From NCBI GenBank assembly GCA_013824245.1, contig PNNN01000039.1:75250-139249 (forward strand): a DNA stretch of 64,000 bases, in the 5' to 3' direction. Each line of letters starts with the position of its first letter. Position 1 is the stretch's first letter. Positions 39,063 through 59,043 of the stretch are shown piece after piece. The notes under the pieces are model-generated. The model did no database searches, had not been told where the DNA came from, and saw only the letters and a list, made by a program, of their open reading frames with translations. The stretch comes from Chlorobiaceae bacterium (GTDB lineage Bacteria > Bacteroidota > Ignavibacteria > UBA10030 > SZUA-254). The position numbers and the translations under genes were made by a program.

Positions 39063-40256
39063 ATGAAAACTGACAAAGCAGGATTTAATACCAAGTTAAT
39101 TCACGCAGGTGAGATACACGATCAATTTCACAGCGCAACAACACCAATATATCAAACTTCAACTTTCGGTTTCCCAAGCGCTGAAGAAGGTGCCAAATGT
39201 TTTGCGGGCGAAAGCGATGGCTACATCTACACACGTATTGCCAATCCGACAATAAATGCGCTTGAACAGCAAATTGCAACGCTCGAAAACGGATACGGAG
39301 GCATTGCTGTTAGTTCGGGGATGGCGGCAGTAACTACTATATATTTAGCATTGATGAGCAGCGGCGATCATATTGTTAGCACTGATGCAATTTACGGACC
39401 CGCACGCGGCGTTATGGAAAAACAATTCATACGATTCGGTTTTCAATCTACATATATCAACACAACAAATATTGATAACATTAAAAATGCTATTCGTCCG
39501 AACACAAAAATTTTGTACATCGAAACTCCTGCAAATCCTACAATGGACATAACCGATATTGCCGCCTGTGCCAAAATTGCACATGAGCATGGTATTTTAT
39601 TAGTTGTAGATAACACATTTTGCAGTCCGTATTTACAGAACCCGTTAGACCTCGGAGCCGATATCGTTTTTCATTCCATGACTAAATCTATTAACGGCCA
39701 TGCAGATGTTGTAGCCGGAATTATAATTGCAAAAGAAAAAAACATCTACACTCAACTGCGAAGCATGATGATTAATCTCGGCTGTAATATGGACCCACAT
39801 CAAGCATACTTAGTATTACGTGGACTGAAAACATTGGGCATCCGTATAGAGAGGGCACAACAAAGCGCTCATCGGGTTGCTCAATTCCTCGAGCAACATC
39901 CCAAAGTAGAATGGATAAAGTATCCGGGGTTGGAATCTCATCCGCAATATAATCTTGGGAAAAAACAAATGCGCGGCAGTGGTTCGATGATTAGCTTCGG
40001 ATTAAAAGGCGGTTTCGATGCAGCCAAAATTTTAATGAATAATGTGCACTTAGCTTTATTAGCTGTTTCGCTTGGTGGTGTGGAAACGTTAATCCAGCAT
40101 CCGGCATCTATGACACATTCAAAAGTATCGAAAGAAGACAAACTTAAAGCCGGTATTACTGATGATTTAATAAGATTATCGATCGGTATCGAGGATGTTG
40201 AAGATATAATTGCAGATTTGGAAAATGGATTAAATATGATGAAAAAGGAAAAATGA
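39063..40256 (+). CDS. megL: PLP-dependent trans-sulfuration enzyme, probably methionine gamma-lyase
   Basis: PIYQTSTF; YTRIANPT; SSGMAA; ETPANP; VDNTF; HSMTKSINGHAD; AVSLGGVETLIQHPASMTH. Confidence 0.75.
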   Translation: MKTDKAGFNTKLIHAGEIHDQFHSATTPIYQTSTFGFPSAEEGAKCFAGESDGYIYTRIANPTINALEQQIATLENGYGGIAVSSGMAAVTTIYLALMSSGDHIVSTDAIYGPARGVMEKQFIRFGFQSTYINTTNIDNIKNAIRPNTKILYIETPANPTMDITDIAACAKIAHEHGILLVVDNTFCSPYLQNPLDLGADIVFHSMTKSINGHADVVAGIIIAKEKNIYTQLRSMMINLGCNMDPHQAYLVLRGLKTLGIRIERAQQSAHRVAQFLEQHPKVEWIKYPGLESHPQYNLGKKQMRGSGSMISFGLKGGFDAAKILMNNVHLALLAVSLGGVETLIQHPASMTHSKVSKEDKLKAGITDDLIRLSIGIEDVEDIIADLENGLNMMKKEK

Positions 40257-40873
40257 TCAACGAAAACAAAGATCACTGGTATGACGGCTGGTTTTACGAT
40301 AAGTTCATAGCTCCAAGCCAAGATAAATTATTTCAACAGATAAAAAATCTTATCGAACCCAACTCAAAAATTATTGATGTCGGCTGCGGGACGGGGCGAT
40401 TCTCTTTTTCTGTTACTGATAAATGTAAGGATGTTTTAGGAATAGATTTATCAAGTAGAAATATTGACAGAGCTAATCTGACACTTTCAGAAAATCCAAA
40501 TAATAAAATTTCTTTTCAGCATAAAAGTGTAGGTGAAATAATTTTCGCCGGTCAAGAACATTTTAATTATGCAGTTTTGACTTATGTTGTTCACGAAGTA
40601 AATATAGATGAACGAGTAAAACTTCTAAAGGAAATAACAAGAGTTGCAGATAAAATTATAATCGGTGATTATCTTGTTCCTAAACCAAATTGCTTTGGGA
40701 GTATGTTGAACGAAGTGATTGAATTTGCTGCCGGTTCGCAACATTACAGAAACTATAAAAGCTATGTGGCAAACGGAGGCATGTATGATTTGGCAAACAA
40801 AGCCGGACTTAAAATTATTACTGAAATAAAAAATCAACCCTCAACGAGTCATATAGTAATGTTGACAGAATAA
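40253..40873 (+). CDS. Class I SAM-dependent methyltransferase
   Basis: IIDVGCGTG; GIDLS; YVVHE. Confidence 0.88.
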   Translation: MINENKDHWYDGWFYDKFIAPSQDKLFQQIKNLIEPNSKIIDVGCGTGRFSFSVTDKCKDVLGIDLSSRNIDRANLTLSENPNNKISFQHKSVGEIIFAGQEHFNYAVLTYVVHEVNIDERVKLLKEITRVADKIIIGDYLVPKPNCFGSMLNEVIEFAAGSQHYRNYKSYVANGGMYDLANKAGLKIITEIKNQPSTSHIVMLTE

Positions 40874-40889
40874 AAGGATATAACCATCT

Positions 40890-41372
40890 GTGAACGAAAA
40901 AATTTGTTTTAAACCAATCGGGATAATTCATTCACCTTTTACCGAAATATCGGGTGTTCCGATTCAACCGCTCAACGCTAAAGGCATTAAAGGTACAATT
41001 GAATTAAATCCTGATTTTATAGAAGGTTTAAAAGATATCGAAGGATTTTCACATATTACTTTGATTTATATTTTTCATTTAACATCCAAGTTTTCTTTGC
41101 AGGTGATACCTTTCATGGATGATAAACCACATGGAATATTTGCAACTCGGTCGCCTTCTCGACCGAACCCCATTGGCATTTCAACAGTTCGCTTAATAAG
41201 TGTTGAACGAAACATTTTGCATATCGAAGAAGTTGATATTATAGATGGAACACCGTTGTTGGACATAAAACCCTTTTATCCGAAATTTGATAATCGAATT
41301 ACTGATAAAGTAGGATGGTTGAAGGGTAAAGGAAATTTAGATGGGGTTCAATCAGATAATAGATTTAAATAA
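40890..41372 (+). CDS. tsaA: TrmO/TsaA-family SAM-binding methyltransferase (single-domain form)
   Basis: FKPIGIIHSPF; GFSHITLIY.FH; GIFATRSPSRPNPIG; DIIDGTPLLDIKP. Confidence 0.88.
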   Translation: MNEKICFKPIGIIHSPFTEISGVPIQPLNAKGIKGTIELNPDFIEGLKDIEGFSHITLIYIFHLTSKFSLQVIPFMDDKPHGIFATRSPSRPNPIGISTVRLISVERNILHIEEVDIIDGTPLLDIKPFYPKFDNRITDKVGWLKGKGNLDGVQSDNRFK

Positions 41373-41388
41373 AATATATAAAACCACA

Positions 41389-42009
41389 ATGCAAGATTTT
41401 TCTAAGTTAATCGCATCGATTTCACTTACTGATAGCGACAAGTTATTGCAAGGTTGGGGATACAACTTAGCTGCTGAGTATTATGAAATCCTCAGTCATG
41501 CCACATTAGATACCCACCAGCCGATACTCGAACTGGCTACGGGAACGGGAAGAATGTCGGCTGTGCTAACTCGGCTCGGGTGCGATGTAGTCACAGGCGA
41601 TGTTTCAACCGAAGACAGAAAAAATGCTGAGCTGCGCATTACAAAAGAGTATCTTCATAAGGTAAAGCTTCTTACAATCGACATGGAATCGTTGCCCTTT
41701 GATAATGGTAGTTTTCCATCAGTAATATCGATGAATACTTTTCATCATCTTGAGCACCCGGAGGTTTGTCTAAATGAACTCATCCGTGTACATTCAGGAA
41801 AGAATTCACTGATAATTGGCGACTTCAATGAAACGGGTTTTGCCGAGCTTCAAAAAGTTTATCAAATACTTTATAAAAAGGATCATCCTCAAGGGAAAAT
41901 GACTCTGGATAAATTAAAACCGCTTCTAGAAACAGACTATCACGAAGTTAAAGAAATTCACACACAATTAAATGTTACATTAATCGCATCAGGTAAGAAG
42001 AAAAAATAA
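41389..42009 (+). CDS. Class I SAM-dependent methyltransferase
   Basis: LELATGTG; DMESLPF; NTFHHL. Confidence 0.85.
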   Translation: MQDFSKLIASISLTDSDKLLQGWGYNLAAEYYEILSHATLDTHQPILELATGTGRMSAVLTRLGCDVVTGDVSTEDRKNAELRITKEYLHKVKLLTIDMESLPFDNGSFPSVISMNTFHHLEHPEVCLNELIRVHSGKNSLIIGDFNETGFAELQKVYQILYKKDHPQGKMTLDKLKPLLETDYHEVKEIHTQLNVTLIASGKKKK

Positions 42010-42534
42010 ATGGAACACATCGAAAAGTTGAGTAAAGATGAATTAATTAAGCTACTTAAAGTGTACGCAAAAAATTGGTTGGCTCACGATGGTTGTTGGT
42101 TTTTAGCGGCAGAAGAAAAATATGGAATAGAAGCAGCAATTGAACTTGATACGAAATCGTGGAACAGGTTCGCAGTTGCAGAAGCTCGACGGATTATGAA
42201 GGAATTTAACATTCCCGAAAACGGCGGTTTGAAAGCACTGGCGCGGGCGTTCGATTACCGTCTGTATGCTGCAATCAATAAACAAGAAATTGAATGGATG
42301 GATGATAAGACAATGGTATTTAGGATGGTGGAATGTCGGGTACAAAAAACCCGCACAGAAAAAAAACTTGCACCTTTTCCCTGTAAATCAGTAGGTATGG
42401 TTGAGTTTAGTCAGTTTGCCAAAGCCATCGATCCACGTATTCAAACCCGTTGTATCAGTTGTCCGCCAGATCCAATTACCAATACATATTGTGCTTGGGA
42501 ATTTACAATTGGGGATGAAAAGAAAACATATTAG
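42010..42534 (+). CDS. DUF6125-like protein
   Basis: NWLAHDGCWFLAAE; CRVQ..R...FPCKSVG; IDPRI..RC..CPPD...CAWEF. Confidence 0.75.
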   Translation: MEHIEKLSKDELIKLLKVYAKNWLAHDGCWFLAAEEKYGIEAAIELDTKSWNRFAVAEARRIMKEFNIPENGGLKALARAFDYRLYAAINKQEIEWMDDKTMVFRMVECRVQKTRTEKKLAPFPCKSVGMVEFSQFAKAIDPRIQTRCISCPPDPITNTYCAWEFTIGDEKKTY

Positions 42535-42598
42535 CATTAATCTGTTTTGTGTGGGATGTTAAAATAAATTATATTGTAATCAACAAGTTCTTTAATAA

Positions 42599-42740
42599 TA
42601 TCTCCGAGTCTGTTTACCTAAATTCGATAATATGGTAACAGACCAGTAAGCCGGTTGCGGCTTCCCGTCCCGAAAACTTTCGGGACGGGACGGGTTCACT
42701 GAGAAATTAGTGTGCCTCCCCTGTTTGGAAAGGAGAGAAA
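42599..42740 (+). ncRNA. Moco (molybdenum-cofactor) riboswitch/RNA motif
   Basis: CTCCGAG..ACCTAA..GATAATATGGT..GCCGG..GGGTTCACTGAGAAATTAGTG-TGCCTCCC-CTGTTTGGAAAGGAG. The 3' end matches the recalled E. coli moaA leader GCCTCCCGTATTTGGAAAGG; P1 is ctcc/ggag; Mo-related neighbours. Confidence 0.8.
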
Positions 42741-42827
42741 TATATTTATTGATTGTATCATTGAATCATTGACTGATTGAACAAATGAATCAATGGCTCA
42801 ATGATCAAGTGAGTCAATAAGCCAATT

Positions 42828-42866
42828 TCCCCATTCTGCTTTTTCAGGGTGGGGATTTTTGCTTTT
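42828..42866 (+). terminator. Intrinsic terminator in the leader (likely riboswitch expression platform)
   Basis: tccccattctg-cttttt-cagggtgggga followed by tttttgctttt, about 50 bp before the first gene. Confidence 0.7.
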
Positions 42867-42914
42867 ATGCAAGTTGGTATAAATAAATAAGTATCAGTCA
42901 GAATAATAAAACAA

Positions 42915-44633
42915 TTGAAACACGATATCGACAAAATAAAACCAATATGGGTTCAAGCGGCGTTTCTCGGCAGTATGTGGGGATCAATTGAGATCATCGT
43001 CGGCAGTTTTCTGCATAATCTTCGGTTACCATTTACAGGCACAATACTATCAGCAATAGGTGTAGCCCTGTTAATCGGAGGACATTATATCTGGAATGAA
43101 AAAGGATTGGCGTGGCGAGCCGGTTTAGTCTGTGCGTTAATGAAGTCGATATCTCCGAGTGCTGTAATAATTGGACCGATGATAGGTATTATGTCTGAAG
43201 CGTTTGTGATTGAATTATTTTTACGTATTTCCGGTCGATCCCCAATCGGTATGTTAATAGGGGGTGCAGTTGCCACGTGTTTGCCTTTTATTCAAAACAT
43301 TCTAAATCTCATTATAACTTTTGGTTTTAACATTACATATCTTTATGTCGAATTGTATAAATTCATTGTGAAGAATTTGGGAATCGAAGGAATCGGTTCA
43401 TATGAAGCAATAGGTTTGTTGTTTTTATTATACGCAATCTTCGGTGTGGGGGCTGCATCTCTCGGCATTATTGTTGGAAAAAAAGTGAACTCGTTACCAT
43501 GGACTCCACCCAGTGTTGCCAGTATTGATAAAACATTATCATTGCAGTCTGTTAATCCTTCACAAAAATTTTCTCTTGCATCGTTGTTGATAAATATAAT
43601 TTCGATCCCTATTATTTTGTTTATCGTTAGCGAATTGTCATTATTATGGTCTTCCTCGATAGTGGGCGGTTACATCATAGTTTTAATATTTCTTTATCCT
43701 AATTCATGGAAAAGATTTTCCAGACCAAAGATTTGGATAGAATTGTTTCTGATTTCAATTCTTGCGGGGTTCTTGTTAGGTGAAATGACTAATCACCATG
43801 CCGGCTGGTCGTGGAGCGGATTATTGGTGGGTGTTCAAATGGTTTTAAGAGCTTCGTATATGATTGTTGTATTTAATATCATCGGTATCGAGTTGAGAAA
43901 TCCCAGAATTATGAACTGGTTTTTTAAAATGGGTTTCGGTCAACTATCTTTTGCCATGGAAATTGCATTCGATGCTTTACCAACAATGATTTCATTCCTT
44001 GGGGATCAGAGAAATGTACTGCTTCGCCCAATTTTGTCACTTACAAGATTACTGCATGTTGTAAAATATAGACTAAGCCAGTTTGAGAAATCGAAACACA
44101 TGACGGGTAAAATATATATTTTGACAGGAAGAAAAGGAATAGGAAAAACTACGCTTCTCGCAAAACTCGTTCAAGATTTTACTAACAAAAATGTGACTAT
44201 TGGTGGAATTCTATCACCTGCAGTGTATCAAGATTTATCTCGCATCGGTTATGATGTCGTTAATATCAAAACTAATGAGAAAAAAATTCTCTGCCGGAAC
44301 GATATTAAAACAGAAGGTGTCAAGCTGGGGGATTTCACTTTCAGCGAGGAGGGTGTATTATTCGGAAACGAGGCAGTTCCAAAAGCCGCCGACTGCAATC
44401 TAATCGTTATCGATGAAGTTGGTCCTCTCGAGCTAAATGGAAAAGGGTGGGCACCTTCTCTTGATATGATAATAAATAATTCAGCATTTCCATTGTTGTT
44501 GGTTGTGAGGGAAAATATTTTAGAGAAAACACAGAAACATTGGAATTTTATTCCGGATTCGATATGGAACTTAAACAATACCAAGTCTGAGCAAATACTT
44601 TCAGATATGGTAAAAGTGATTGTGCCGGATTAA
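42915..44633 (+). CDS. Polytopic membrane protein (ECF S-component-like N-terminus) fused to a C-terminal NTPase_1/DUF2478-type P-loop domain
   Basis: Many TM segments starting AAFLGSMWGSIEIIVGSFLH; C-terminal ILTGRKGIGKTT, GYDVV, IDEVGPLE..GKGW; TTG start. Confidence 0.72.
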   Translation: MKHDIDKIKPIWVQAAFLGSMWGSIEIIVGSFLHNLRLPFTGTILSAIGVALLIGGHYIWNEKGLAWRAGLVCALMKSISPSAVIIGPMIGIMSEAFVIELFLRISGRSPIGMLIGGAVATCLPFIQNILNLIITFGFNITYLYVELYKFIVKNLGIEGIGSYEAIGLLFLLYAIFGVGAASLGIIVGKKVNSLPWTPPSVASIDKTLSLQSVNPSQKFSLASLLINIISIPIILFIVSELSLLWSSSIVGGYIIVLIFLYPNSWKRFSRPKIWIELFLISILAGFLLGEMTNHHAGWSWSGLLVGVQMVLRASYMIVVFNIIGIELRNPRIMNWFFKMGFGQLSFAMEIAFDALPTMISFLGDQRNVLLRPILSLTRLLHVVKYRLSQFEKSKHMTGKIYILTGRKGIGKTTLLAKLVQDFTNKNVTIGGILSPAVYQDLSRIGYDVVNIKTNEKKILCRNDIKTEGVKLGDFTFSEEGVLFGNEAVPKAADCNLIVIDEVGPLELNGKGWAPSLDMIINNSAFPLLLVVRENILEKTQKHWNFIPDSIWNLNNTKSEQILSDMVKVIVPD

Positions 44634-44679
44634 CAAAACTCAATTTATAAACTATACATAAATCTATTCAACTTTTAAG

Positions 44680-46698
44680 ATGAATAAAATTAAAACAATC
44701 CTATATTTCTTTTTGATTTCACTCGGCATATTATTTGACCGGGTGTTTTGTGGTGTTGAAGAACCCTCAGACAGTGCAAAAATATTTTATCTCGGTGAAA
44801 TTATTATAGTAGGTAATGGGATGGAAGGATCTACACCATTCCAACAAGATGCCATTCAGCAAAACGAAATGATGAAGCAATACCTTCTGAACACTTCTCA
44901 TGCGTTGAACATTCTTCCCGGTGTTAATATCTCGAATGTCGGCGGCAGGAATGAATCTATGGTTTATGTGCGTGGTTTTGATTTAAGACAGATCCCTGTT
45001 TTTCTCGACGGGATTCCACAGTATGTGCCGTACGACGGATATGTAGACCTTGCACGTTTTACAACATTCGATCTTTCAAGGATCACAATAAATAAAGGTT
45101 TTTCGTCCATTCTTTATGGAGCAAACGCTATGGGGGGTGCAATCAATTTAATCTCAAGGAAACCCTCCTCAGAGCTTGATTACGAATTTTTATCTGGTAT
45201 CATGAATAGCGGAGGATATAATTACTTGGTCAATCTTGGAATGAATAGACAGTCTTACTACCTGTCGGGGAATATTTCTAAATCAGTTCAGAATTCTTTT
45301 CCTCTCTCACAATCTTATACCACAACCCAAAATGAGAATGGAGGAGAGCGCGATAATTCTTACAGGAGCGATTTGAAATATGGAATCAAAACAGGTTATA
45401 CACCAAATGAGACCGATGAATACACATTTAGTTTTATGAATCAGCATGGTGAAAAGGGAAATCCGGTTTATTCTGGGGCAAATCCGTTGGGAATTGTTCG
45501 TTATTGGCGTTGGCCCAACTGGGATAAAATTAGTGAATATTTTATTTCTAAAACAGTATTCGGTGACGAAAGTTTACACAACGGTGTGCTTGTTAAAACA
45601 CGGTTCTTTCATGATAAATTTAAAAACACACTGCACTCATACGATGACGCTTCATACAGCACACAAAGCAAAAAAAGCTCTTTTAAAAGTTATTATAATG
45701 ATGACTCGTGGGGAGCAGTTCTTGAGGGCGTTTCAAGAATTTTAAGGAATCATCAAATTACAATTGCTTCCTATTACAAGTACGATATACACAGAGAAAA
45801 TAATTTCGGGGAACCGGCGAGAACGATAAGTGATGCTGCAATATCCGCAGGCATTGAAGATGTGTATTTATTGAGGGAAGATGTTTCGTTGATTGGCGGA
45901 GTAAGTTATGATTTACGAAAAAGCTTAGAGGCACAGGATTATAATTCTAAGACTAACACGCTGTCGGATTTTCCGAAAGATGACGCCCATGCGTTGAATA
46001 TCCAAATTGGAGGAATTTATTCTATTTCATCCGTCAGTAAAGTTACATTTGGCATTGCAAGAAAAACACGTTTTGCTACGATGAAAGACCGTTATTCATA
46101 TAAACAGGGATCAGCCATCCCGAATCCTTATCTTTTGCCTGAATATGCAGTCAATTATGATATTTCATATCATGAAATGATCGATGCTCGTGGATTTTTC
46201 AAAGTGAGTGCTTTTTATAACGATATCAGAAATGTGATAATGCAAATTACTAACATTCAAGGAACTCTTTCACAAATGCTGAACTTTGGTAAAGCAAGAT
46301 ATTTCGGTGCCGAAGCAGAATTTGAATTGAACCCTATTCCCTTCATGAATACAGGTATGAATTATACATTCTTAAAGCGTGATAATATTTCCGATCCCGG
46401 TATAAAATTTCTCGATACTCCGGAACATAAAATATTTTTTTATACTACAATTTTACCGATATCAACAATCGATGTTACTCTCGGAGTTGAATATAATTCA
46501 CCGAGATACAGCACCAGCGATGGTTTGTATAATGCGCCAGCGTATACAATCTTCGATGTAAAATCTTCCCTGACATTGTTTGATCATGTCCTGATAAATT
46601 TTGGGGTTACAAATATTTTTGATCGTAATTACTGTATTATGGAAGGATATCCGGAAGCAGGGAGAACGGGTTATCTTAACGTTCGATTTAGTAATTAA
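44680..46698 (+). CDS. TonB-dependent receptor
   Basis: LPGVNI..GGRNE..VYVRGF; DGIP; ITINKGFSSILYGANAMGGAINLI; C-terminal NIFDRNY...GYPEAGRTGYLNVRF. Confidence 0.9.
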   Translation: MNKIKTILYFFLISLGILFDRVFCGVEEPSDSAKIFYLGEIIIVGNGMEGSTPFQQDAIQQNEMMKQYLLNTSHALNILPGVNISNVGGRNESMVYVRGFDLRQIPVFLDGIPQYVPYDGYVDLARFTTFDLSRITINKGFSSILYGANAMGGAINLISRKPSSELDYEFLSGIMNSGGYNYLVNLGMNRQSYYLSGNISKSVQNSFPLSQSYTTTQNENGGERDNSYRSDLKYGIKTGYTPNETDEYTFSFMNQHGEKGNPVYSGANPLGIVRYWRWPNWDKISEYFISKTVFGDESLHNGVLVKTRFFHDKFKNTLHSYDDASYSTQSKKSSFKSYYNDDSWGAVLEGVSRILRNHQITIASYYKYDIHRENNFGEPARTISDAAISAGIEDVYLLREDVSLIGGVSYDLRKSLEAQDYNSKTNTLSDFPKDDAHALNIQIGGIYSISSVSKVTFGIARKTRFATMKDRYSYKQGSAIPNPYLLPEYAVNYDISYHEMIDARGFFKVSAFYNDIRNVIMQITNIQGTLSQMLNFGKARYFGAEAEFELNPIPFMNTGMNYTFLKRDNISDPGIKFLDTPEHKIFFYTTILPISTIDVTLGVEYNSPRYSTSDGLYNAPAYTIFDVKSSLTLFDHVLINFGVTNIFDRNYCIMEGYPEAGRTGYLNVRFSN

Positions 46699-46835: not shown

Positions 46836-47546
46836 TTAGATTTTTTTAAATAGGCAAACCGGCTCGATACCATTAATAAATTTAGACATTCTAACACCCT
46901 GCGTAACAGACTTAACAAGTGTATGTTTATCTACAACCCTGACGCCGGCAATTATGTCGGCTCCATATTCGAATAAAACGGGTGATAGAGGAGTTGTGGG
47001 TCCTAAAACGATATTAATTCCATTTTGCCCAAGCTCCAGCAGACGCTGTAGAGAGTGATTGATTAACGATGTGCCGGAAATGACGTTGATATCTGATTGT
47101 GGAAGTAATTCTTCACATGCAAAACTTGGTAATTCATCTCCCTCCGGATTAATCTCAAGCAGATATGATTTTTTGGCAATGGCAGAGATATCGGCATAGA
47201 ACGGAAACCTGCCGATAAAAGTAACGGTTTTTCCACGGCTTTTATCCTTGATGAAATCTTTGATATTTCCTATTTCACCACGAGGTTCGATTAGAGAATT
47301 AATCGCAGCTACCCCGAGAGAAGCTTCAATCGGTATCCATGATAAGATACGGTTAGTGAGATTTGAAATTGTGCACGAGGATAAATCTCCCGCATTCTCG
47401 ATGTTAATTGTTGTTTTTGAATTATACGTGTGGCTAATCCCGATAAAACTCGATTCGACGGCTGTCCATGTGAGACCAATCCAGACCCCCTTAACCTGAG
47501 GTTCTATACCATTTACACTTTTTATTAATGCTTCTTCAAGTTTCAT
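46836..47546 (-). CDS. DUF364/DUF4213 family (Rossmann-like putative metal/pterin-binding) protein
   Basis: VWIGLTWTAV; EASLGVAAINS; TFIGRFPF; ISGTSLINHSL; LGPTTPLSPVLF.YG. Confidence 0.85.
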   Translation of the reverse strand: MKLEEALIKSVNGIEPQVKGVWIGLTWTAVESSFIGISHTYNSKTTINIENAGDLSSCTISNLTNRILSWIPIEASLGVAAINSLIEPRGEIGNIKDFIKDKSRGKTVTFIGRFPFYADISAIAKKSYLLEINPEGDELPSFACEELLPQSDINVISGTSLINHSLQRLLELGQNGINIVLGPTTPLSPVLFEYGADIIAGVRVVDKHTLVKSVTQGVRMSKFINGIEPVCLFKKI

Positions 47547-47681
47547 CGTACTTTTAAAAATAATTTTGATTTGATTCTTTTATCAAAGATAATATTTTAT
47601 AAATGAACAAACAAAGAATAAACATCTGTTCTAATAGAGCATGATTTTGTAACTACAACCTATTTGCTTTATATTCATAAT

Positions 47682-48281
47682 ATGGAAATTGAAAATAAAA
47701 ACAGATCTATTACTGGTGTTATTTTAGCAGGGGGTAAAAGTCATCGGATGGGTCAGGATAAGGCGTTGCTTGAATATCGCGGCAAACCGTTCATTCAACA
47801 TATTGCTGAAATACTAAAAGGAATTTTCGATAAAGTAATTATCATTTCAGATGATGGTGAAAAATATAATTTTATAAACCTTCCGATCTATAGCGATATT
47901 TATAAAAATTGTGGACCACTTGCCGGTATTCATGCTGCGCTAAAACAAAATCAATATGATATATTTGTAACTTCGTGTGATACACCAGTCATAGAAAAAA
48001 AAGTTATCCAAACATTACTTAAGATCTCAACCGAAGGAGAAATATTCACATTTTCGATAAACAAAAGAATAGAACCTTTTCCGGGAATATATAAGTTTGA
48101 TTGTCTTAATCGGTTAGAATCTGAAATTGACAGTGGAAATCTTTCGGTTCAAAAATTCATCAAAAAATGTAAATCAAAAGTTTTCCCCTTCGAAAAATAT
48201 TTCCCGATAAGCAAAGAAGCAGTTCTCAAGAATATTAACACTCCAAATCAATATAAATCACTCCTAAAATCGGATATATAG
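47682..48281 (+). CDS. mobA: Molybdenum cofactor guanylyltransferase
   Basis: GVILAGGKSHRMGQDKALL; GPLAGI; TSCDTP; NINTP. Confidence 0.88.
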   Translation: MEIENKNRSITGVILAGGKSHRMGQDKALLEYRGKPFIQHIAEILKGIFDKVIIISDDGEKYNFINLPIYSDIYKNCGPLAGIHAALKQNQYDIFVTSCDTPVIEKKVIQTLLKISTEGEIFTFSINKRIEPFPGIYKFDCLNRLESEIDSGNLSVQKFIKKCKSKVFPFEKYFPISKEAVLKNINTPNQYKSLLKSDI

Positions 48282-52074: not shown

Positions 52075-53298
52075 ATGATATCTAAATATCTCACAATATC
52101 AATTTTATGCGTTCTCGGTGTTGTCTGTTTTTTAGGCGATACACCGCGATCTTCTTTGACGATTTTGGCTCCAGTTTATCCCGATTCGCTTGCTTATGAT
52201 CAGGGTCAACTATTTTTAATCACTTGTTCCAAAGAACAAACAACCGGTTTAATGATATCCACTCAATGGGCTGTTGAGAAGTTGATCGATATAGGCAGTA
52301 AGGCAAACAAAGATAATTTTGCCAAAGAAGTTTTTAAATTATTTCCAGCTAAGTCAACTCTTGAATTAGTCTCTACTTCTTTTCTGTTTTACAATGGATT
52401 CTCAAAAGCGGATTCCATTAGTTTCCCTTACATCGATACTATAACTGTTCGGTTTTTCTGGCAATTACCTCAGTTTGCCGAAATCATTCGTCAGGTACAA
52501 AATATCAATGCATCCCATGTTTTGCTTCAGATGCGAGGTTGGAAAGATACCGTTTATACTTCAACTCATCCCGATCCTATTAATCCCGATCAGGTATTAT
52601 ATCGCGCGTCAGTACAATTGTTGCCCGGTGCAAACAGGATATATTTTGCGAGCAATGGGATGAAAAATGAGGCAGAAGAATTTTTTGTTAACTTCGTGAC
52701 CAAAGCACGTAAGAGCGAATCTTACGATGTACAATTCCATGGTTCTCCCCTTGCTGTATCTTGTGCAAAATGTCATAAGGAATTGCCGAGCGAAACAAAT
52801 GCTGATGGTGAACGCGATAAATGCGGATTGTGTCATAACGAAATTGCAGGCGGTTTAATGAAACATGGTCCCGCGGCAGAACCGAAAGAATGTTCCACAT
52901 GTCATGAACGTTCTACAGAAAAAAATATTGAAATTGTTCCAAAAGGTGTTCCGGGTGTTTGTTTCGATTGCCATACCGAGAAGAAAGATGAAGTTGAGAC
53001 TTCGGCAGTAAAACACAAAGTTGCACACGATTGTGTAATTTGCCACTCACCGCACGCAACCGATCAGCCGAAATTTTTGAAGAATGATGTCTATCGTTTG
53101 TGCACCGGATGTCACCCGAACCATCTTATCAGTCATCCCGTCGATAAACACCCCATGCGATTTTCAAAATTAAATAAAGACTCAAACGAAGAAATTTCAT
53201 GTGTAAGTTGCCACAAGCCGCATGGTTCCGAAAACCGATCTTTATTAAAAGCCAGCGGTGGTTCAATGGCAGTGTGTATGCAATGTCATCAAAAGTGA
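52075..53298 (+). CDS. Octaheme cytochrome c (paired-CXXCH type) with a non-heme N-terminal domain
   Basis: Signal peptide; CAKCH, CGLCH, CSTCH, CFDCH, CVICH, CTGCH, CVSCH, CMQCH. Confidence 0.9.
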   Translation: MISKYLTISILCVLGVVCFLGDTPRSSLTILAPVYPDSLAYDQGQLFLITCSKEQTTGLMISTQWAVEKLIDIGSKANKDNFAKEVFKLFPAKSTLELVSTSFLFYNGFSKADSISFPYIDTITVRFFWQLPQFAEIIRQVQNINASHVLLQMRGWKDTVYTSTHPDPINPDQVLYRASVQLLPGANRIYFASNGMKNEAEEFFVNFVTKARKSESYDVQFHGSPLAVSCAKCHKELPSETNADGERDKCGLCHNEIAGGLMKHGPAAEPKECSTCHERSTEKNIEIVPKGVPGVCFDCHTEKKDEVETSAVKHKVAHDCVICHSPHATDQPKFLKNDVYRLCTGCHPNHLISHPVDKHPMRFSKLNKDSNEEISCVSCHKPHGSENRSLLKASGGSMAVCMQCHQK

Positions 53299-54212
53299 AT
53301 TCATATCGAATATTCTGTTTCTTGTTTGCGATGGCATCAATTGCCACCGCGCAAACAACATTCACCGATTTAGGAATTTCGGGCGGATCAAGTATCGTTA
53401 TGGCTCCTACAATTTCTGTTGCCCCCACTTCGCAGTTACGCGTTCATATGGGTCGAGTTGATTTTCTTCGCGGTGGCATGAAGGGATATAATGTATTCGG
53501 TCTGCAGGGTGGATTTTCAACCAACCTCGAAACATTCATTTCGATGTACAGCGAGCAAACCGGCTCAATTAATTCAAATGTATCATATGGAATTGGCGGC
53601 AAGCTTCTTTTGCCGTTCCGTGTTCCAGCGATTGGGAATCTCGCACTTTGGGGCGAAACGATCTCATCTACATTTTCATCCGAGAATGGAATGTTGCCAC
53701 AGAATATCACGCGGTTTTACATTATTGGGGGTAGATCTATTGGAAACTTTAACCCAATAATAATCGCCGGAGCAATGAATATTGACCATAAGTATTTACC
53801 GATAGCCGCTGTTGGAGGAACATTTCCTCTGAGCAGTGAAATAAAAATAGGCGGCGAAGGCATTTACAATTATTTCGGGATGAGAGAAAAACAAGGTATG
53901 CTGACCGGGATGATGAGAATTTTATCTAACATCAGTGTTCAGGTTAGCGGTGGATACATTCATTCCCAGCCGATGTCATCATGGATTTTTTCTGCCGGAC
54001 TTTCACTGGCAACAGCCGACTTGAATTTGTCTCCAAAGCCACAGGCAGCGCCAAAGGTTATTGTTCCGTCTTTTGAAGAGATGGAAAAAATGTCGATGGA
54101 GGAAAAAGGTATTGGACAAACTGTTCCACCTGTGCCGCCTGAGCAGGAAGAGAAAAAGCCGGAAACCCCGGAAGATAAGAAAGATGAAAAACAAAATGAT
54201 CCGCATAAATAA
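53295..54212 (+). CDS. Putative outer-membrane beta-barrel (YjbH-like) with Pro/charged tail
   Basis: GTG overlapping the upstream stop gives the signal peptide MNSYRIFCFLFAMASIATA; GISGGSSIVMAPT; alternating amphipathic strands; PPVPPEQEEKK tail. Confidence 0.55.
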   Translation: MNSYRIFCFLFAMASIATAQTTFTDLGISGGSSIVMAPTISVAPTSQLRVHMGRVDFLRGGMKGYNVFGLQGGFSTNLETFISMYSEQTGSINSNVSYGIGGKLLLPFRVPAIGNLALWGETISSTFSSENGMLPQNITRFYIIGGRSIGNFNPIIIAGAMNIDHKYLPIAAVGGTFPLSSEIKIGGEGIYNYFGMREKQGMLTGMMRILSNISVQVSGGYIHSQPMSSWIFSAGLSLATADLNLSPKPQAAPKVIVPSFEEMEKMSMEEKGIGQTVPPVPPEQEEKKPETPEDKKDEKQNDPHK

Positions 54213-54230
54213 GATAAAGATAATTTGATT

Positions 54231-55247
54231 ATGAAAGATATATTGAAAAAAATATTGTTAGTTGTGATAATAATTGGCGCTAATTCATTTTATGGGTGTG
54301 GTTCAAAAAATATTCAGAAGGAAGATATTGCATGGCCCAGTCCGCCCGATGAACCTCGCATAAGATATATAAAGACATATGAAAGCGAAGATGATTTTCT
54401 TTCAAAGTTTGGAATTTTTGCACAGAGCTTAACCGGAAAAGGCGGAACTATCTCGCTTAGTCGTCCTTTCGATGTTTGTAGTGACGGTAAAGGACGAATT
54501 TTTGTAACCGATGTTGCGCAAGGAATTATTGTTTTCGATGAAAACCAGAAGAAAGTATTAGCTCTCGGAGAAAATATTCCTGTTCCGCTCGGCAACCCGC
54601 TCGGAATTGCTTATGGAGATAATAAATTATTCGTCGGCATAGCGGAAATAGGGCAGGTTGTTGCTATGACTCCCGAAGGAAAATTCCTCAATCTTATCGG
54701 AAAATCTGGTTCTTTCCCTAATCCGGTTGATGTTGATTATGATAAATTAAACAAACGAGTGGTGGTTGTCGATAATAAAAACCATCAGGTATATATTTAT
54801 TCTGAAGGTGGAGATTCACTGCTGACGATAGGTAAGCGCGGCGATGCTGATGCTGAATTCAATTATCCTCAAAGCGTGGCAGTTGATACTGCCGGGAATA
54901 TTTATGTGGTAGATGCGTTCAACTTCCGCATACAGGAATTCGACTCGCATGGTAAGTTTATACGAAAATACGGACAGCAGGGAAATGTCTTCGGTACATT
55001 TGCACGCCCGAAGGGTATTGCTCTTGATATGTATCAGAATATTTATGTTGTCGATGCGATGCATCAAAATTTTCAAATATTCAATCAAAATTTCGAACTG
55101 CTTCTTTTTGTAGGCAAATTCTCGAATAAAGATAATTGGGGGTTTCAAAATCCAATTGGAATCTCCGTTGATCAAAACAATACAATTTATGTTGCAGACC
55201 AGTTGAACCAGAGGATACAGGTGTTTCAACTGTTAAAACCAGATTAA
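54231..55247 (+). CDS. NHL-repeat six-bladed beta-propeller lipoprotein (copy 1)
   Basis: FYGC lipobox; WPSPPDEPRI; FNYPQSVAVD, FARPKGIALD, FQNPIGISVD, NQRIQVF repeats. Confidence 0.9.
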   Translation: MKDILKKILLVVIIIGANSFYGCGSKNIQKEDIAWPSPPDEPRIRYIKTYESEDDFLSKFGIFAQSLTGKGGTISLSRPFDVCSDGKGRIFVTDVAQGIIVFDENQKKVLALGENIPVPLGNPLGIAYGDNKLFVGIAEIGQVVAMTPEGKFLNLIGKSGSFPNPVDVDYDKLNKRVVVVDNKNHQVYIYSEGGDSLLTIGKRGDADAEFNYPQSVAVDTAGNIYVVDAFNFRIQEFDSHGKFIRKYGQQGNVFGTFARPKGIALDMYQNIYVVDAMHQNFQIFNQNFELLLFVGKFSNKDNWGFQNPIGISVDQNNTIYVADQLNQRIQVFQLLKPD

Positions 55248-55353
55248 TTCTAAAAAATAAAAAATCCACTTCCTCAATGCCTCATGAGGGAAAGGATTAT
55301 GTTCAATCACGAGGCAGTAAAAAACAAAATCATTAATCTAAGGAGTAATTAGT

Positions 55354-56013
55354 ATGAAACAACTTTTAGTTGTAGCAGTGATGATACTTGTTGCCGCATC
55401 TTTCGTTATGGGACAAACGTTAGGAATGGCAACCAGCAAGCACAACTTTGCATTATCTTCAACGAACACCATCAAAGGCGCTTCGGAGAAGGTTTGCGGA
55501 TATTGCCATACACCACACGTTCCGGCAACCGGAATTAAAGCACCGCTATGGTCACGTGCGAAATTAGTATCGACCGGTTACGGTGTATATTCAAGTCCAA
55601 CAATGGATGCTACGCTAACCGCACTTGATGCAGGTCAGGATAATGTTAGCTCTATGTGTATGAGCTGCCACGATGGCAGCGCATTATTTGCTTCAGCGGC
55701 TTATGTGAAACGTCCACACGCTGGATCAGTCGTGTGGGATCCATACATAGCGACAACAGTTGGTGATGCAGCAAACCTGCATGCCGGAACAAAGTATGGT
55801 ACAGGTTTATCACACACACATCCGGTGAATTTCGCCTATAATGCAGCATTAGTAACTGCCGACGGTGGATTACAAGGGACGCCGTTGAACAATTTACCGC
55901 TATACAACGATATGATGCAATGCGGAAGCTGCCATAATCCGCATCTCACGAGCAAAATGACTCGTGTTACAAGCGATGGCGGTTTACTCTGTATTTCATG
56001 TCATGTTAAGTAA
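55354..56013 (+). CDS. OmcE-like tetraheme cytochrome c (copy 1)
   Basis: SKHN..CGYCHTPH..PLWSR..YSSPTM..CMSCHDG..HPVNF..CGSCHNPH..LCISCHVK; strong RBS AAGGAG. Confidence 0.8.
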   Translation: MKQLLVVAVMILVAASFVMGQTLGMATSKHNFALSSTNTIKGASEKVCGYCHTPHVPATGIKAPLWSRAKLVSTGYGVYSSPTMDATLTALDAGQDNVSSMCMSCHDGSALFASAAYVKRPHAGSVVWDPYIATTVGDAANLHAGTKYGTGLSHTHPVNFAYNAALVTADGGLQGTPLNNLPLYNDMMQCGSCHNPHLTSKMTRVTSDGGLLCISCHVK

Positions 56014-56031
56014 GTAACGATTAATATTGTG

Positions 56032-56059
56032 CGACTCATCCCGATAACGGGATGGGTCG
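56032..56059 (+). terminator. Strong hairpin after the cytochrome gene (stabiliser or partial terminator)
   Basis: cgactcatcccg-ataa-cgggatgggtcg; no U-tract. Confidence 0.45.
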
Positions 56060-56084
56060 TACAAATAAATTGGCAAGGGGAAAA

Positions 56085-57758
56085 GTGAAGCGAGTATTCA
56101 TTATAGCGCTTTTATTAGTGCTATCTATTTATAGTGGCGTCAGTCAGCTTTCGTCGATCAACGGTGAGCTGCGTTATCAGCATCAGTATCAGGATGCTTA
56201 TAGCGGTGGCGCTTTTTATAAACTAATCCGGAAAAATCCGCAGTTTATTTTCGGTACAATGGGTTATATTTTATCCCCCATGATTTTTTCCTTCGATGTC
56301 CGCACCAACATCAACTTAAACTATAACAATTCATCTTTCGCCGGCGTCAACAGTTCTTTCAAGCAAACCATTATAGGGTTTTATGACCTGAATGTTAATG
56401 CTCTGCAACGATTGCCGGTTCGTGTCTCGTTTTCTGCCCGTGATCAGCAGATCAAATCATCTTCGCAATTCAGTAAATTCAATGTCGGTTTCGATGATTA
56501 CAGGCAGCAGCAACAGCGTATCGAATTTTCGACGATGAATTTGAAGTTTTTACCAGCTACCTCTTTTGCATATCAACGTATCCGCAATTGGTCCGATATA
56601 TCATTGAACCGCTTTAATCAGCTTATGCAAGAACTTACACTGAATATGTCTCAATCCACACAAGATGCATCGGTGAGTTTATCGGGATCACTCAGCGAGA
56701 ATTATGAGAGTTTTACAAACAACAGGTTAAGGTACCTACGTTTTCAGATGAGCGGTAACAAAGAATTTTCAGCCAATCACCGCGCAGATATATCTTCCGA
56801 ATATTATAAATTCGAAAATACATCGATGATAAATGCCAATGGCATTTACAACGGCACGCTATTCGAGAAATTCCGATTCAACACCAATATTTTAGCTCGA
56901 AATGCGAACTCTCAATCGGCATCATCAACAACACTCGGATTAGGACAGACTATCCAGTTTCTCCAGAATGAAAATTTTAATTATTCGGTTTCTTTTAATA
57001 ATCAATCCACATACGACATCTACATTCAGGAGAATAACAGTTACAAACAACGTACCGATAATTTGGCGGGATCGGGAACGATTCAACATATGAGGTCTAT
57101 CAGCGATATCACATTTTCTAACGGAATATCTTTCGGCTATGCGAAGCAAGATTCCCGTTTAGGGCAGAGGTCGTACAACGGCGGGCTGACAAACAGTTTT
57201 CAAACCACTTCCGGCGGTTATCAAATAAATGCAAATCAAATGTTTAGCATGACAAGAATTAAAGGATATCTCGGGCGAGATGAAATCAACAACTTAGTGA
57301 ACATGATGATTGGTAAAACTTTGCCGTACCAAATCAATTCTCAGACAGGTATCGAGTTTCGGAATGAACGCCGGTCGAACACGAATGAGCTTTTTTATAA
57401 ATATCAAACAATCCAATTGCGACAACATTTAAATACGTCTATCTATATATATAGTCCGTTTACCGTTTCTGTTGAAGGAACAATGAATTGGATATCAAAC
57501 GGCGTTAAAGGGCATATGTACGGAATAACGGCAAACATAAACAGCGGTCGTTTCTTTTTACAAAATTTATCTATGAATTATCGTCTAAGTCGGACGTACG
57601 ATATATATTATAGAAGACCGTATATGGAGCAGACAATTGAGTTTACATATAACTGGCGCGCTCTTGCATTCCAGCTAAGGTTACAGGAATTCAGGTTCAT
57701 CGATACGCGTCATGATGTCTGGTTCAGTGTAACAAGACCGTTTAACATTGGATTATGA
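56085..57758 (+). CDS. Large putative outer-membrane beta-barrel (porin of a porin-cytochrome complex?)
   Basis: Signal peptide from GTG 56085; S/N/Q/T-rich with alternating aromatic/hydrophobic strands throughout; no heme motif. Confidence 0.6.
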   Translation: MKRVFIIALLLVLSIYSGVSQLSSINGELRYQHQYQDAYSGGAFYKLIRKNPQFIFGTMGYILSPMIFSFDVRTNINLNYNNSSFAGVNSSFKQTIIGFYDLNVNALQRLPVRVSFSARDQQIKSSSQFSKFNVGFDDYRQQQQRIEFSTMNLKFLPATSFAYQRIRNWSDISLNRFNQLMQELTLNMSQSTQDASVSLSGSLSENYESFTNNRLRYLRFQMSGNKEFSANHRADISSEYYKFENTSMINANGIYNGTLFEKFRFNTNILARNANSQSASSTTLGLGQTIQFLQNENFNYSVSFNNQSTYDIYIQENNSYKQRTDNLAGSGTIQHMRSISDITFSNGISFGYAKQDSRLGQRSYNGGLTNSFQTTSGGYQINANQMFSMTRIKGYLGRDEINNLVNMMIGKTLPYQINSQTGIEFRNERRSNTNELFYKYQTIQLRQHLNTSIYIYSPFTVSVEGTMNWISNGVKGHMYGITANINSGRFFLQNLSMNYRLSRTYDIYYRRPYMEQTIEFTYNWRALAFQLRLQEFRFIDTRHDVWFSVTRPFNIGL

Positions 57759-57767
57759 TGTTACCTC

Positions 57768-57945
57768 GAAAGACTCCAGATATCAGACATCAGATTAAAA
57801 ACCTCTCTTCGCAATCCCCCTTGCCAGAGAGAAGGGATTGGAGTTGTCCGCTTATGGCGGACTCTCCAATTCCGTATGTTTTTGGGGGATTTGGCGCTGT
57901 GATATTTAACGGAAATATTATAGTCAGTGATCTGGGGAATTGCAA
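57768..57945. repeat. Repeat-derived spacer inside the cytochrome operon
   Basis: cagatat/cagacat periodic units; aatcccccttg..aagggatt; ttggagttgtccgcttatggcggactctccaa; gggaattgcaatattccc. Confidence 0.5.
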
Positions 57946-58000
57946 TATTCCCATAAATGATATAAGTTTTATAGGTACCAAAATTGGCATTAATAAAATC

Positions 58001-59008
58001 ATGAAGTTATTCATAATTACATTTTTATCGTTTTACATGCTGTTATTATTTGGTTGCGGAACGTCGAAGGAAGCAATTCCCGATTACGTTTGGCCCCCAC
58101 CGCCCGAAAAAGCCCGGATTAAATTTGTGAACATTATTAAGGGGAAAGATTATTTCGAATCATCAGGAATAGATAAGGTGTTGAGTGTTCTTGCGGGCGA
58201 GCATACAGGTACAACTTTTGAGCGTCCTTATGCGGTAGCTGTTGATGCAACAGGAAATATTTATGTATCCGACACAAGCTTGAAGAAAGTTTTTGTGTTC
58301 GATGTTACTCAAAAACAAATTCGCACGATCGGCGATAAAGGAAGTGCAAAACTTCAATCTCCCATCGGGATTGCAATTGCATCCTCAAATAAAATATTCA
58401 TAGCCGATTCAAAAGTAAGACGTGTTTTTGCGTACGACTTAGAAGGTAATTTACTTTTCGGAATTGGTGAAGAAAACGAATTTGCATCGCCAACCGGTTT
58501 GGCTTTCGATTCATCCTCAAGCCGACTTTATGTGGTTGATACAAACAATCATCTGGTTAGAGTGTACAATGATGAAGGAAAATTTTTATTCACGTTCGGC
58601 AAACGCGGTGGCGACGACGGTGAGTTTAATTTTCCAACAAACATCACTGTACATAAAGGAAAAGTGTATGTTGTAGATACTATTAACGGACGAGTTCAGA
58701 TTTTCGATCTGGAAGGGAAATTTGTTTCGAAATTCGGGCAACTTGGAAATACGCCAGGATATTTCTCGCGTCCAAAGGGTATCGCGCTCGATTCATTCGG
58801 ACATATCTATATAGTAGATGCTGCGTTCGATAATTTTCAGTTGTTCAATGAAAAAGGGGAGGCGCTGATGTTCATCGGACAAGCCGGCGCAGGTATTGCA
58901 GAATTTCAATTGCCCGCGGGGATTTTCATTGATAAAGATAATTATATTTATGTTGTCGACCAGCTCAACGCGCGCGTACAGGTTTTTCAATTCATCGGTA
59001 AAGAATAA
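58001..59008 (+). CDS. NHL-repeat beta-propeller lipoprotein (copy 2)
   Basis: LLFGC lipobox from ATG 58001; WPPPPEKARI; FNFPTNI, FSRPKGIALD, FQLPAGIFID, NARVQVF. Confidence 0.9.
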   Translation: MKLFIITFLSFYMLLLFGCGTSKEAIPDYVWPPPPEKARIKFVNIIKGKDYFESSGIDKVLSVLAGEHTGTTFERPYAVAVDATGNIYVSDTSLKKVFVFDVTQKQIRTIGDKGSAKLQSPIGIAIASSNKIFIADSKVRRVFAYDLEGNLLFGIGEENEFASPTGLAFDSSSSRLYVVDTNNHLVRVYNDEGKFLFTFGKRGGDDGEFNFPTNITVHKGKVYVVDTINGRVQIFDLEGKFVSKFGQLGNTPGYFSRPKGIALDSFGHIYIVDAAFDNFQLFNEKGEALMFIGQAGAGIAEFQLPAGIFIDKDNYIYVVDQLNARVQVFQFIGKE

Positions 59009-59043
59009 TAAAATAAATTAATTTCATCATTAAGGAGTTACAC

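Follow-up and report, generated by a model that had tools for sequence, protein, structure and literature searches.

A molybdenum cofactor (Moco) riboswitch with a terminator platform precedes a conserved, uncharacterised gene pair in the stretch of DNA analysed here (the window: 64,000 nt of contig PNNN01000039.1 from a Chlorobiaceae bacterium of the Ignavibacteria). The pair encodes a polytopic membrane protein fused to a P-loop nucleoside triphosphatase (NTPase) domain, referred to here as FUS, and a TonB-dependent receptor (TBDR). We propose, with a probability of roughly 0.55, that the locus is a riboswitch-repressed acquisition system for molybdenum or tungsten (Mo/W) that serves both membranes and in which FUS would be a novel, NTPase-coupled inner-membrane component. 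More tentatively, and at somewhat less than even odds, FUS could represent a new class of NTP-driven inner-membrane transporter for molybdate/tungstate (or a chelate), energised by a THEP1-type NTPase that is either fused to the membrane domain or present as a separate subunit.

The initial annotation of the window had read a Moco-type RNA and an intrinsic terminator from the letters alone, and both readings are borne out. The Rfam Moco model (RF01055) matches with 68.5 bits (gathering score 36; E 2.2e-14) and is covered over positions 1-135 of 135; it is the sole Rfam match within the whole 64-kb window, and the RNA start originally placed at 42599 lies a few bases inside it. Our own covariance models score the aptamer at 134-169 bits. 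Among six homologous RNAs found 5' of FUS homologues, in an alignment that was itself fitted to the covariance model, 94.4% of cells are paired (at most 44% in slid controls), and 25 of the 47 pairs show compensatory changes. Helices P1, P2, P4 and P5 are kept and backed by covariation, and P4 carries a GAAA tetraloop (42703-42706). The minimum-free-energy (MFE) fold reproduces the aptamer, with a z-score of −8.4 against shuffled sequences. At the P3 position the Rfam alignment shows a 45-nt insertion, and two hairpins span about 42 nt there; the RNA is an ordinary member of RF01055, though P3-expanded. The terminator hairpin, present in both the MFE and the centroid fold, is followed by TTTTT, and the FUS open reading frame (ORF) begins 60 nt 3' of it. 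Moco RNAs are OFF switches that often act through terminators (Regulski 2008, PMC2408646); P3-containing RNAs track Moco, and P3-lacking RNAs track the tungsten cofactor (PMC2408646). The element is confirmed as a genuine Moco riboswitch whose expression platform is a terminator. Between aptamer and terminator lies an AT-rich palindrome hairpin that, judged from its fold, may act in antitermination or bind a protein; folding did not reveal it in two relatives (L001 and L082).

Our survey of regulators and neighbours covered 160 loci around FUS homologues, together with a few loci found by exact-protein look-up. A Moco RNA lies directly 5' of FUS in eight loci including the window: five RNAs contain P3, two lack it, and one is a fragment at a contig end (Table 1). 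The RNAs of the window clade have an enlarged P3, and those of L145 and of the Lentisphaeria locus L008 have P3 deleted, as in the “tungsten-type” (Tuco-type) class. Expression platforms differ among these loci, as is expected of functional riboswitches: the window has its terminator; L001 has a hairpin followed by U6; and in L008 about 18 nt separate the end of the aptamer from the start codon, which suggests translational control. These platforms were read by folding, a simple terminator scan having missed those of the relatives, and folding gave no obvious platform for L082 and L124. Regular-expression and nhmmer searches for the RNA recovered close relatives only. Our covariance model R1 was too narrow (L008 and L145 scored 22-25 bits), and both loci were confirmed by model R2 and by Rfam. 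A riboswitch accompanying the whole FUS family was considered and rejected: Rfam scans of two sets of 20 loci gave none and then two close relatives, and about 150 other FUS loci lack the RNA (Rfam was run on 38 of them, and our models R1 and R2 on all). The Moco riboswitch is limited to a few lineages, yet its recruitment to FUS took place at least three times.

A second Mo-specific regulator stands at other FUS operons. A small gene for a helix-turn-helix protein resembling the N-terminal domain of ModE heads the FUS operon in about 10 other loci, the usual order being ModE-like, TBDR, DUF364 and FUS; reference homologues of this gene score 87-88 bits on TIGR00637, the model of the ModE repressor domain. 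The ModE-like gene and the Moco RNA never occur together at one FUS locus. Rfam scans of 47 homologous loci turned up no cobalamin riboswitch, a class that the initial annotation had named as a sign of another cargo (no search was made for Fur boxes).

The second gene of the pair connects the locus to Mo regulation from another side. The TBDR named in the initial annotation has plug and barrel domains (PF07715, 74.9 bits; PF00593, 76.8 bits), as in a 22-strand-type receptor, and its sequence reads as having a signal-peptide-like N-terminus and a TonB-box-like EIIIVG. Source annotations label it “iron complex outermembrane receptor”, and its best partial matches in the PDB and NCBIfam are BtuB and siderophore receptors; against the NCBIfam equivalogs for BtuB, siderophore and haem receptors it scores far below every cut-off (TonB-B12, 97.8 vs. 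599.7). Orthologues stand next to FUS in other phyla (31-58% identity), and full-length orthologues occur in cultured Flavobacterium johnsoniae, Chryseolinea, Spirosoma and Fibrisoma (44-47% identity, covering 94% of the length or more). Of the four cultured Bacteroidota genomes inspected, three have a ModE-like gene just ahead of the TBDR orthologue, and in Chryseolinea soli the TBDR cluster runs on into ModA (TIGR01256, 205 bits, above cut-off), ModB and ModC. As the F. johnsoniae TBDR shares 50% identity with the receptor encoded in a ModE-like, TBDR, DUF364, FUS operon, the F. johnsoniae-type and FUS-operon receptors form one orthologous group. This Mo-regulon TBDR subfamily is proposed here and is not a curated family; judged from gene order, two unrelated regulatory systems place it under control that responds to Mo. 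As its members partner either ModABC or FUS, FUS would occupy the slot of the inner-membrane partner. Our search of the open literature found no report of a Mo-regulated TBDR of the window type. On the 3' side of the TBDR orthologue in the cultured Bacteroidota there is a protein of 166-198 residues with a match to Oxidored_molyb, a molybdopterin-binding domain (regions in Table 1), and two of these genomes also encode a di-haem enzyme of the MauG/MbnH family (TIGR04039, 262 bits, below cut-off). This layout resembles the MbnT-MbnP-MbnH copper-uptake modules, but under a ModE-like regulator.

FUS itself combines a familiar NTPase with an unfamiliar membrane domain. The initial annotation had called the P-loop domain THEP1/DUF2478-like, and the first half of that description stands: residues 402-538 match PF03266 (NTPase_1/THEP1) with 92.3 bits (cut-off 23.9), and for this domain a Foldseek search of the PDB with the full-length model returns 2i3b (E 6e-6) and 1ye8 (E 3e-5) at the top, with TM-scores on the target of 0.70 and 0.77, respectively. 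As the score on the NCBIfam equivalog PRK13695 (88) lies below its cut-off (156), we regard the domain as a divergent member of the THEP1 family. DUF2478 (PF10649) was rejected at 18.7 bits (cut-off 22.3); some FUS homologues carry a precomputed match to it. MobB (PF03205) was also rejected, at 18.9 bits against a cut-off of 26.6 and over residues 402-432 only; the MobB model TIGR00176 gives 16.5 (cut-off 76.2), and the NF011057 match is weak and at the level of the P-loop. Walker A (G405-x4-GKT412) and Walker B (D500-E501, within DEVGPLE) are invariant across the aligned FUS homologues.

The membrane domain comprises helical bundles at residues 10-193 and 221-327, followed by amphipathic helices at 330-395. 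Alignments show invariant polar residues (E26, H34, N35, W60, W67, C73, K77, S78, S80, P81, E95 and R312) and further invariant stretches (GSFLHN30-35, K77-S-x-S-P81, P88, M89 and E326-L-R-N-P330), and the architecture is conserved end to end across homologues. The AlphaFold2 models are confident, with a pLDDT of 83.5 for the full-length protein and 83.8 for residues 1-395 alone (pTM 0.82). From helix positions and lysine/arginine counts alone, we estimate a topology of about ten helices with both termini inside; the ELRNP motif and three amphipathic helices would then be cytoplasmic and lead to the NTPase. The domain has no Pfam match even at E ≤ 10 in 14 family members, no NCBIfam match, and no relative in a sequence-profile search of all PDB chains save flagellin noise. 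Foldseek with residues 1-395 gives a best E of 0.012 against the PDB, with TM-scores below 0.2, root-mean-square deviations above 20 Å and noise of the major-facilitator type, and the full-length search returned matches to the NTPase domain only. As far as the predicted model allows comparison, the fold has no detectable solved relative. The label “ECF-S-like” in the initial annotation does not hold: no energy-coupling factor (ECF) S or T component appears in Pfam, in the PDB profile search or among the 50 Foldseek chains listed. An ATP-binding cassette (ABC) transporter was likewise rejected, with no ABC_tran or BPD_transp Pfam match on FUS; the sole ABC-type relation is a P-loop-level match to EcfA (E 0.55).

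FUS belongs to a large and widely spread family. Full-length homologues of the window protein number more than 100, share 36-87% identity with it and carry no annotation beyond “nucleoside-triphosphatase THEP1”. Relatives occupy at least 564 loci in references with one genome per species and at least 464 loci in JGI metagenomes, and when the membrane domain only is used as query, an exhaustive HMMER search yields 795 clusters (50% identity), of which 288 have E ≤ 1e-30. A metagenome scan with the window FUS alone as query gave no match; with a clade alignment it gave 80 loci, among which the only close relatives are L081, L082 and L124 (53-59% identity). Carriers are mostly Bacteroidota, and the family spans at least eight bacterial lineages, including Ignavibacteriota, Acidobacteriota, Desulfuromonadales, Elusimicrobia, Lentisphaeria, KSB1 and one Thiohalospira. 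By length (360-440 residues), roughly one in four of the 150 best representatives is membrane-only. At one locus (L166, 1409-3097) FUS is split: a 393-residue membrane gene ends in a stop codon and is followed after 7 nt by a separate THEP1-type NTPase gene, whose product is 37% identical to the NTPase domain of the window protein. As both arrangements occur, the membrane and NTPase modules are a conserved functional pair, fused or split; by analogy, such pairing is usual for subunits of one machine. Upstream of the split FUS lies a MobA-like gene, itself broken into two ORFs. Our search of the open literature found no description of this membrane-NTPase family; on DUF364, DUF2478, THEP1 in connection with molybdenum and TonB-linked molybdate uptake it yielded just the cofitness note on DUF364 and modABC and the original paper on the riboswitch.

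Genes with a known or suspected Mo link recur around FUS. The commonest partner in other loci is DUF364, which lies within 4 kb in 32 of the 160 and directly upstream on the same strand in 26. The window protein matches PF04016 (DUF364) and PF13938 (DUF4213) with 108.2 and 52.3 bits, both above cut-off, and PDB 3l5o at E 3e-17; its gene is convergent to the operon, and in the close relatives L082 and L167 the DUF364 gene follows the TBDR on the same strand. DUF364 is reported to be conserved beside molybdate uptake genes, and in Methanococcus maripaludis a DUF364 gene sits within a modABC operon cofit with nifH (bioRxiv 10.1101/2024.03.05.583561). A TBDR of the window subfamily is found within 4 kb in 32 loci (adjacent in 18), and MobA within 4 kb in 21, being adjacent, directly upstream and on the same strand, in 11. 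The window MobA had been named in the initial annotation and is present (NF001457, 139 bits, below the equivalog cut-off of 164; PF12804). In all, 67 of the 160 loci have at least one Mo-linked feature (DUF364, the TBDR subfamily, MobA, a ModE-like gene, ModB or a Moco RNA) no more than 4 kb from FUS; among the 103 loci whose upstream sequence reaches 3 kb or more, the number is 54. A Pfam tally of neighbouring ORFs also includes NifX-like proteins (Nitro_FeMo-Co), molybdoenzymes of the xanthine-dehydrogenase type and rhodaneses.

Table 1. Features of the window and, below them, of loci with FUS or TBDR homologues (positions in the lower part are those of the respective locus; percentages are FUS identity to the window protein).
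Feature	Positions	Strand	Evidence
Moco riboswitch aptamer (Rfam RF01055), P3-containing class	42590-42751	+	Rfam match, covariation in six homologues
Expanded P3 region, two hairpins (42649-42662 and 42663-42690)	42649-42690	+	MFE fold
AT-rich imperfect palindrome hairpin with TCATTGA/TCAATGA repeats	42745-42820	+	MFE fold
Intrinsic terminator (expression platform): 11-bp GC-rich stem 42828-42855, 6-nt loop, U-tract	42828-42865	+	Terminator scan, folds
FUS, 572-residue membrane-NTPase fusion, TTG start	42915-44633	+	ORF, Pfam, alignments
FUS membrane domain, residues 1-395	42915-44099	+	AlphaFold2, alignments
FUS C-terminal THEP1/NTPase_1 P-loop domain	44100-44633	+	PF03266, Foldseek, invariant columns
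TBDR, plug and barrel, 46 nt 3' of FUS, same operon	44680-46698	+	Pfam
DUF4213+DUF364 protein, no signal peptide, cytoplasmic	46836-47546	-	Pfam, PDB 3l5o
MobA-like molybdenum cofactor guanylyltransferase, divergent from DUF364	47664-48281	+	NF001457, PF12804
PsrABC-like bis-MGD molybdoenzyme (catalytic, 4Fe-4S, NrfD anchor)	15762-19444	+	Pfam Molybdopterin, Molydop_binding, Fer4_11, NrfD
Moco RNA 5' of FUS, L082 (53%)			Rfam, 72.8 bits
Moco RNA 5' of FUS, L124 (59%, partial)			Rfam, 71.2 bits
Moco RNA 5' of FUS, L001 (52%)			Rfam, 62.9 bits
Moco RNA 5' of FUS, P3 deleted, L145 (36%)	1332-1463		Rfam, 68.3 bits
Moco RNA 5' of FUS, P3 deleted, L008, Lentisphaeria (38%)	7857-7982		Rfam, 46.4 bits
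Moco RNA 5' of FUS, L167 (51%)			Own model R2, 115.7 bits
Moco RNA 5' of FUS, L081 (53%)			3' fragment at contig end
Oxidored_molyb region, L161	10014-10610
Oxidored_molyb region, L163	9989-11608
Oxidored_molyb region, L164	10019-11615
Oxidored_molyb region, L165	10016-10513

We envisage the following sequence of events. When Moco is plentiful, the aptamer would bind it and transcription would terminate at about position 42860; when Moco is scarce, FUS and the TBDR would be produced. The TBDR would then import a Mo species (molybdate/tungstate or a chelate) over the outer membrane by means of TonB, and FUS would carry it across the inner membrane. The path through the membrane may be formed by the domain of about ten helices, with its buried invariant polar residues and the KSxSPS motif between two helices; and the THEP1-type NTPase may energise or gate transport through the cytoplasmic region of ELRNP and the amphipathic helices, on a principle like that of ABC transporters or FeoB, with which FUS shares no homology. 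In the cytoplasm, DUF364 and MobA could receive the metal and complete the bis-molybdopterin guanine dinucleotide (bis-MGD) cofactor for molybdoenzymes, for instance the Psr-like reductase encoded nearby. That molybdenum-dependent reductase had also been pointed out in the initial annotation, and it is a possible client of the Mo supply. No ModABC was found in the window by tblastn with ModA, ModB and ModC, in agreement with the initial annotation (TupABC and WtpABC were not queried directly, and not every ORF was scanned); the ABC system seen there is of the ZnuA/ABC-3 kind only.

Several observations weigh against this proposal. Ninety-three of the 160 loci, many of them with short flanks, have no Mo-linked neighbour. 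Even in the window clade the operon partnership is not obligatory, because at L168 (10001-11752; 52% identity) FUS stands alone, without Moco RNA, TBDR or DUF364; this gene lies 77 nt 3' of an amidohydrolase gene, near dnaA, dnaN and gyrB. The riboswitch-controlled unit of the window includes neither DUF364 nor MobA. ModB/ModC-like genes occur near FUS in four of the 160 loci, and the idea that FUS strictly replaces ModBC is accordingly not upheld. By sequence and by fold (Pfam, PDB profile and Foldseek), the membrane domain is unlike any known transporter, and we know of no THEP1-family NTPase that drives transport. Finally, MobA directly upstream of FUS, as in 11 loci, recalls mobA-mobB and fits cofactor maturation equally well.

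This last point belongs to the main competing explanation, which we consider unlikely but better founded than any of the others: FUS would be a membrane-bound, MobB-like factor for Moco maturation or insertion that works with MobA and DUF364, for example in loading Moco into membrane-bound or exported molybdoenzymes, and the TBDR would be independent of it. The frequency of MobA near FUS (21 loci, with same-strand adjacency in 11), the weak P-loop-level matches to MobB (18.9 bits; NF011057) and the presence of ModBC-like genes alongside FUS in four loci all fit such a role, as does the fact that Moco RNAs also regulate Moco biosynthesis genes (PMC2408646). Yet the MobB score is below its cut-off of 26.6 and covers the P-loop only; a conserved domain of 395 residues and ten helices with buried invariant polar residues far exceeds what an anchor requires; and the linkage to the TBDR in 32 loci, mostly without another inner-membrane carrier, would be left unexplained.

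The nature of the imported species sets our proposal partly apart from that of the initial annotation, which had the pair importing molybdopterin/Moco or Mo/W chelates in a salvage route. Its link of the pair to Mo/W holds up well, given the Moco RNAs, the ModE-like genes, DUF364, MobA and the association of the TBDR with ModABC; the salvage part has been weakened, and import of a pterin species (Moco, molybdopterin or cyclic pyranopterin monophosphate) by TBDR and FUS, with MobA converting it to MGD, now appears quite improbable. Salvage would explain why a TBDR is used, as these receptors typically handle substrates exceeding porin size; MobA acts after Mo insertion, so that MobA and an importer would suffice; and an Oxidored_molyb-like small protein lies next to the TBDR orthologue in cultured Bacteroidota. 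But the same TBDR subfamily clusters in Chryseolinea with the molybdate-specific ModABC under a ModE-like regulator, and DUF364 is tied in the literature to molybdate uptake genes. Free Moco is, moreover, extremely labile. Because of this lability and the TBDR-ModABC partnership, we favour molybdate/tungstate or a chelate over Moco or molybdopterin.

Import of a cargo other than Mo/W (an iron-siderophore, cobalamin or another metal), with the riboswitch link a lineage-specific accident, seems very improbable to us: the “iron complex” annotation, the partial matches of the TBDR to BtuB and siderophore receptors and the 93 loci without a Mo-linked neighbour speak for it, but the TBDR scores far below the equivalog cut-offs, the 47 scanned loci hold no cobalamin riboswitch, and a coincidence of Moco RNAs in three lineages, ModE-like genes, MobA, DUF364 and a ModABC-linked TBDR would be needed. 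The least credible alternative, that FUS exports Mo/W and so lowers its cytoplasmic level, draws on the fact that the direction of transport is unreadable from sequence; but a Moco OFF switch and ModE-type repression silence the genes at high Mo, the opposite of what an exporter needs, and the partner TBDR is an importer.

The window holds several other gene clusters. Downstream of the PsrABC-like genes come those for two YeeE/YedE-type sulfur-transport half-proteins and for a rhodanese (15762-21346, + strand), and together these look like a module for the respiration of sulfur compounds. An operon on the + strand (39063-42534) ends 55 nt before the riboswitch and encodes a Cys/Met-metabolism pyridoxal-phosphate enzyme, an S-adenosylmethionine (SAM) methyltransferase, a TrmO/TsaA-like protein, a second SAM methyltransferase (weakly TehB-like) and a DUF6125 protein; from its gene content it may be a cluster for small-molecule (S, Se or Te?) methylation. 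Its genes were not found near FUS elsewhere, save a methyltransferase in L080 and a weak match to the pyridoxal-phosphate enzyme (28% identity) in L020. Genes for ZnuA, an ABC-3 permease, a cupin/DUF4920 protein and a second TBDR with a CarboxypepD_reg domain (23058-28024, +) probably form a separate TonB-dependent uptake cluster of the Zn/Mn type, and a type I restriction-modification system (HsdR-like, HsdM and HsdS) occupies 9104-14260 (+). Beyond the MobA-like gene lies a sigma-54 two-component pair, and after it, at 52075-62670 (+), come multihaem c-type cytochromes interleaved with NHL beta-propeller proteins; the cytochromes have paired CXXCH motifs, and one has an MtrC/MtrF-like domain match and a NapC/NirT-like region. 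This last cluster may serve extracellular electron transfer.

Enzymes of Mo and W drive nitrate, sulfur, formate and aldehyde metabolism, and the known uptake routes for these metals are ABC systems (ModABC, TupABC and WtpABC) and a few permeases; to our knowledge, no dedicated TonB-dependent route for Mo/W has been established. If our proposal is correct, a family with at least several hundred species-level members, now called no more than “nucleoside-triphosphatase THEP1”, would become a component of Mo/W acquisition. The TBDR subfamily, which occurs in tractable strains of Flavobacterium and Spirosoma, would supply candidates for the outer-membrane receptor of Mo, and testable functions would fall to DUF364 and the THEP1-type NTPases. 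If FUS does represent a new transporter class, it would make up, together with the TBDR subfamily and DUF364, a complete TonB-dependent Mo/W uptake route widespread in Bacteroidota, Ignavibacteriota, Acidobacteriota and Desulfuromonadales, and the THEP1/NTPCR family, including the human “cancer-related NTPase”, would obtain its first physiological role. The double regulation, by a riboswitch or by a ModE-like repressor, opens the hypothesis to ordinary genetics.

Compared with known systems, the regulatory part of the locus is conventional and its inner-membrane part is not. Like the Moco/Tuco riboswitches upstream of modABC, moa and tup genes, the window RNA combines the RF01055 aptamer with a terminator OFF platform and a position ahead of Mo-supply genes, and both P3-containing and P3-lacking variants of the class precede FUS homologues; the difference is that here the RNA controls a TBDR and a membrane-NTPase fusion instead of ModABC/TupABC/WtpABC, Moco biosynthesis or molybdoenzyme genes. 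The closest parallel in overall logic is BtuB with BtuCDF under the cobalamin riboswitch, where a cofactor-sensing RNA also represses a TBDR and an NTP-dependent inner-membrane component; the window system, however, has no gene for a periplasmic binding protein, ABC permease or ABC ATPase, FUS is one polypeptide with an unsolved fold and a THEP1-type NTPase, and the ligand class would be Mo/W and not a corrinoid. With ModABC, TupABC and WtpABC, the FUS systems share Moco RNA and ModE-type inputs, a partner from the same TBDR subfamily (in Chryseolinea) and presumably the same role, but no homology: FUS lacks an ABC signature, BPD_transp_1 and a binding protein. The resemblance to ECF S and T components is one of size and look only (a helix bundle of about 190 residues, a second helical module and an NTPase), with no similarity in Pfam, the PDB profile search or Foldseek and with an NTPase that is not an EcfA-type ABC ATPase. 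By sequence and fold, and with intact Walker motifs, the C-terminal 175 residues genuinely belong to the THEP1/NTPCR family (PF03266; Aquifex aeolicus 1ye8, human 2i3b); known members are small and soluble, whereas the FUS domain is fused or adjacent to a 395-residue membrane domain and occurs in Mo/W contexts, and we know of no physiological role for this family. The closest mechanistic precedent is FeoB, in which a P-loop NTPase of non-ABC type forms one polypeptide with a metal-linked membrane permease domain, although the domain order is reversed, there is no similarity in sequence or fold, and the NTPase of FUS is of the THEP1/RecA-like type and that of FeoB is a TRAFAC GTPase. The logic of the system is thus known from BtuB/BtuCDF and ModABC; what appears to be new, as judged by these comparisons, is an inner-membrane component outside the known transporter families.

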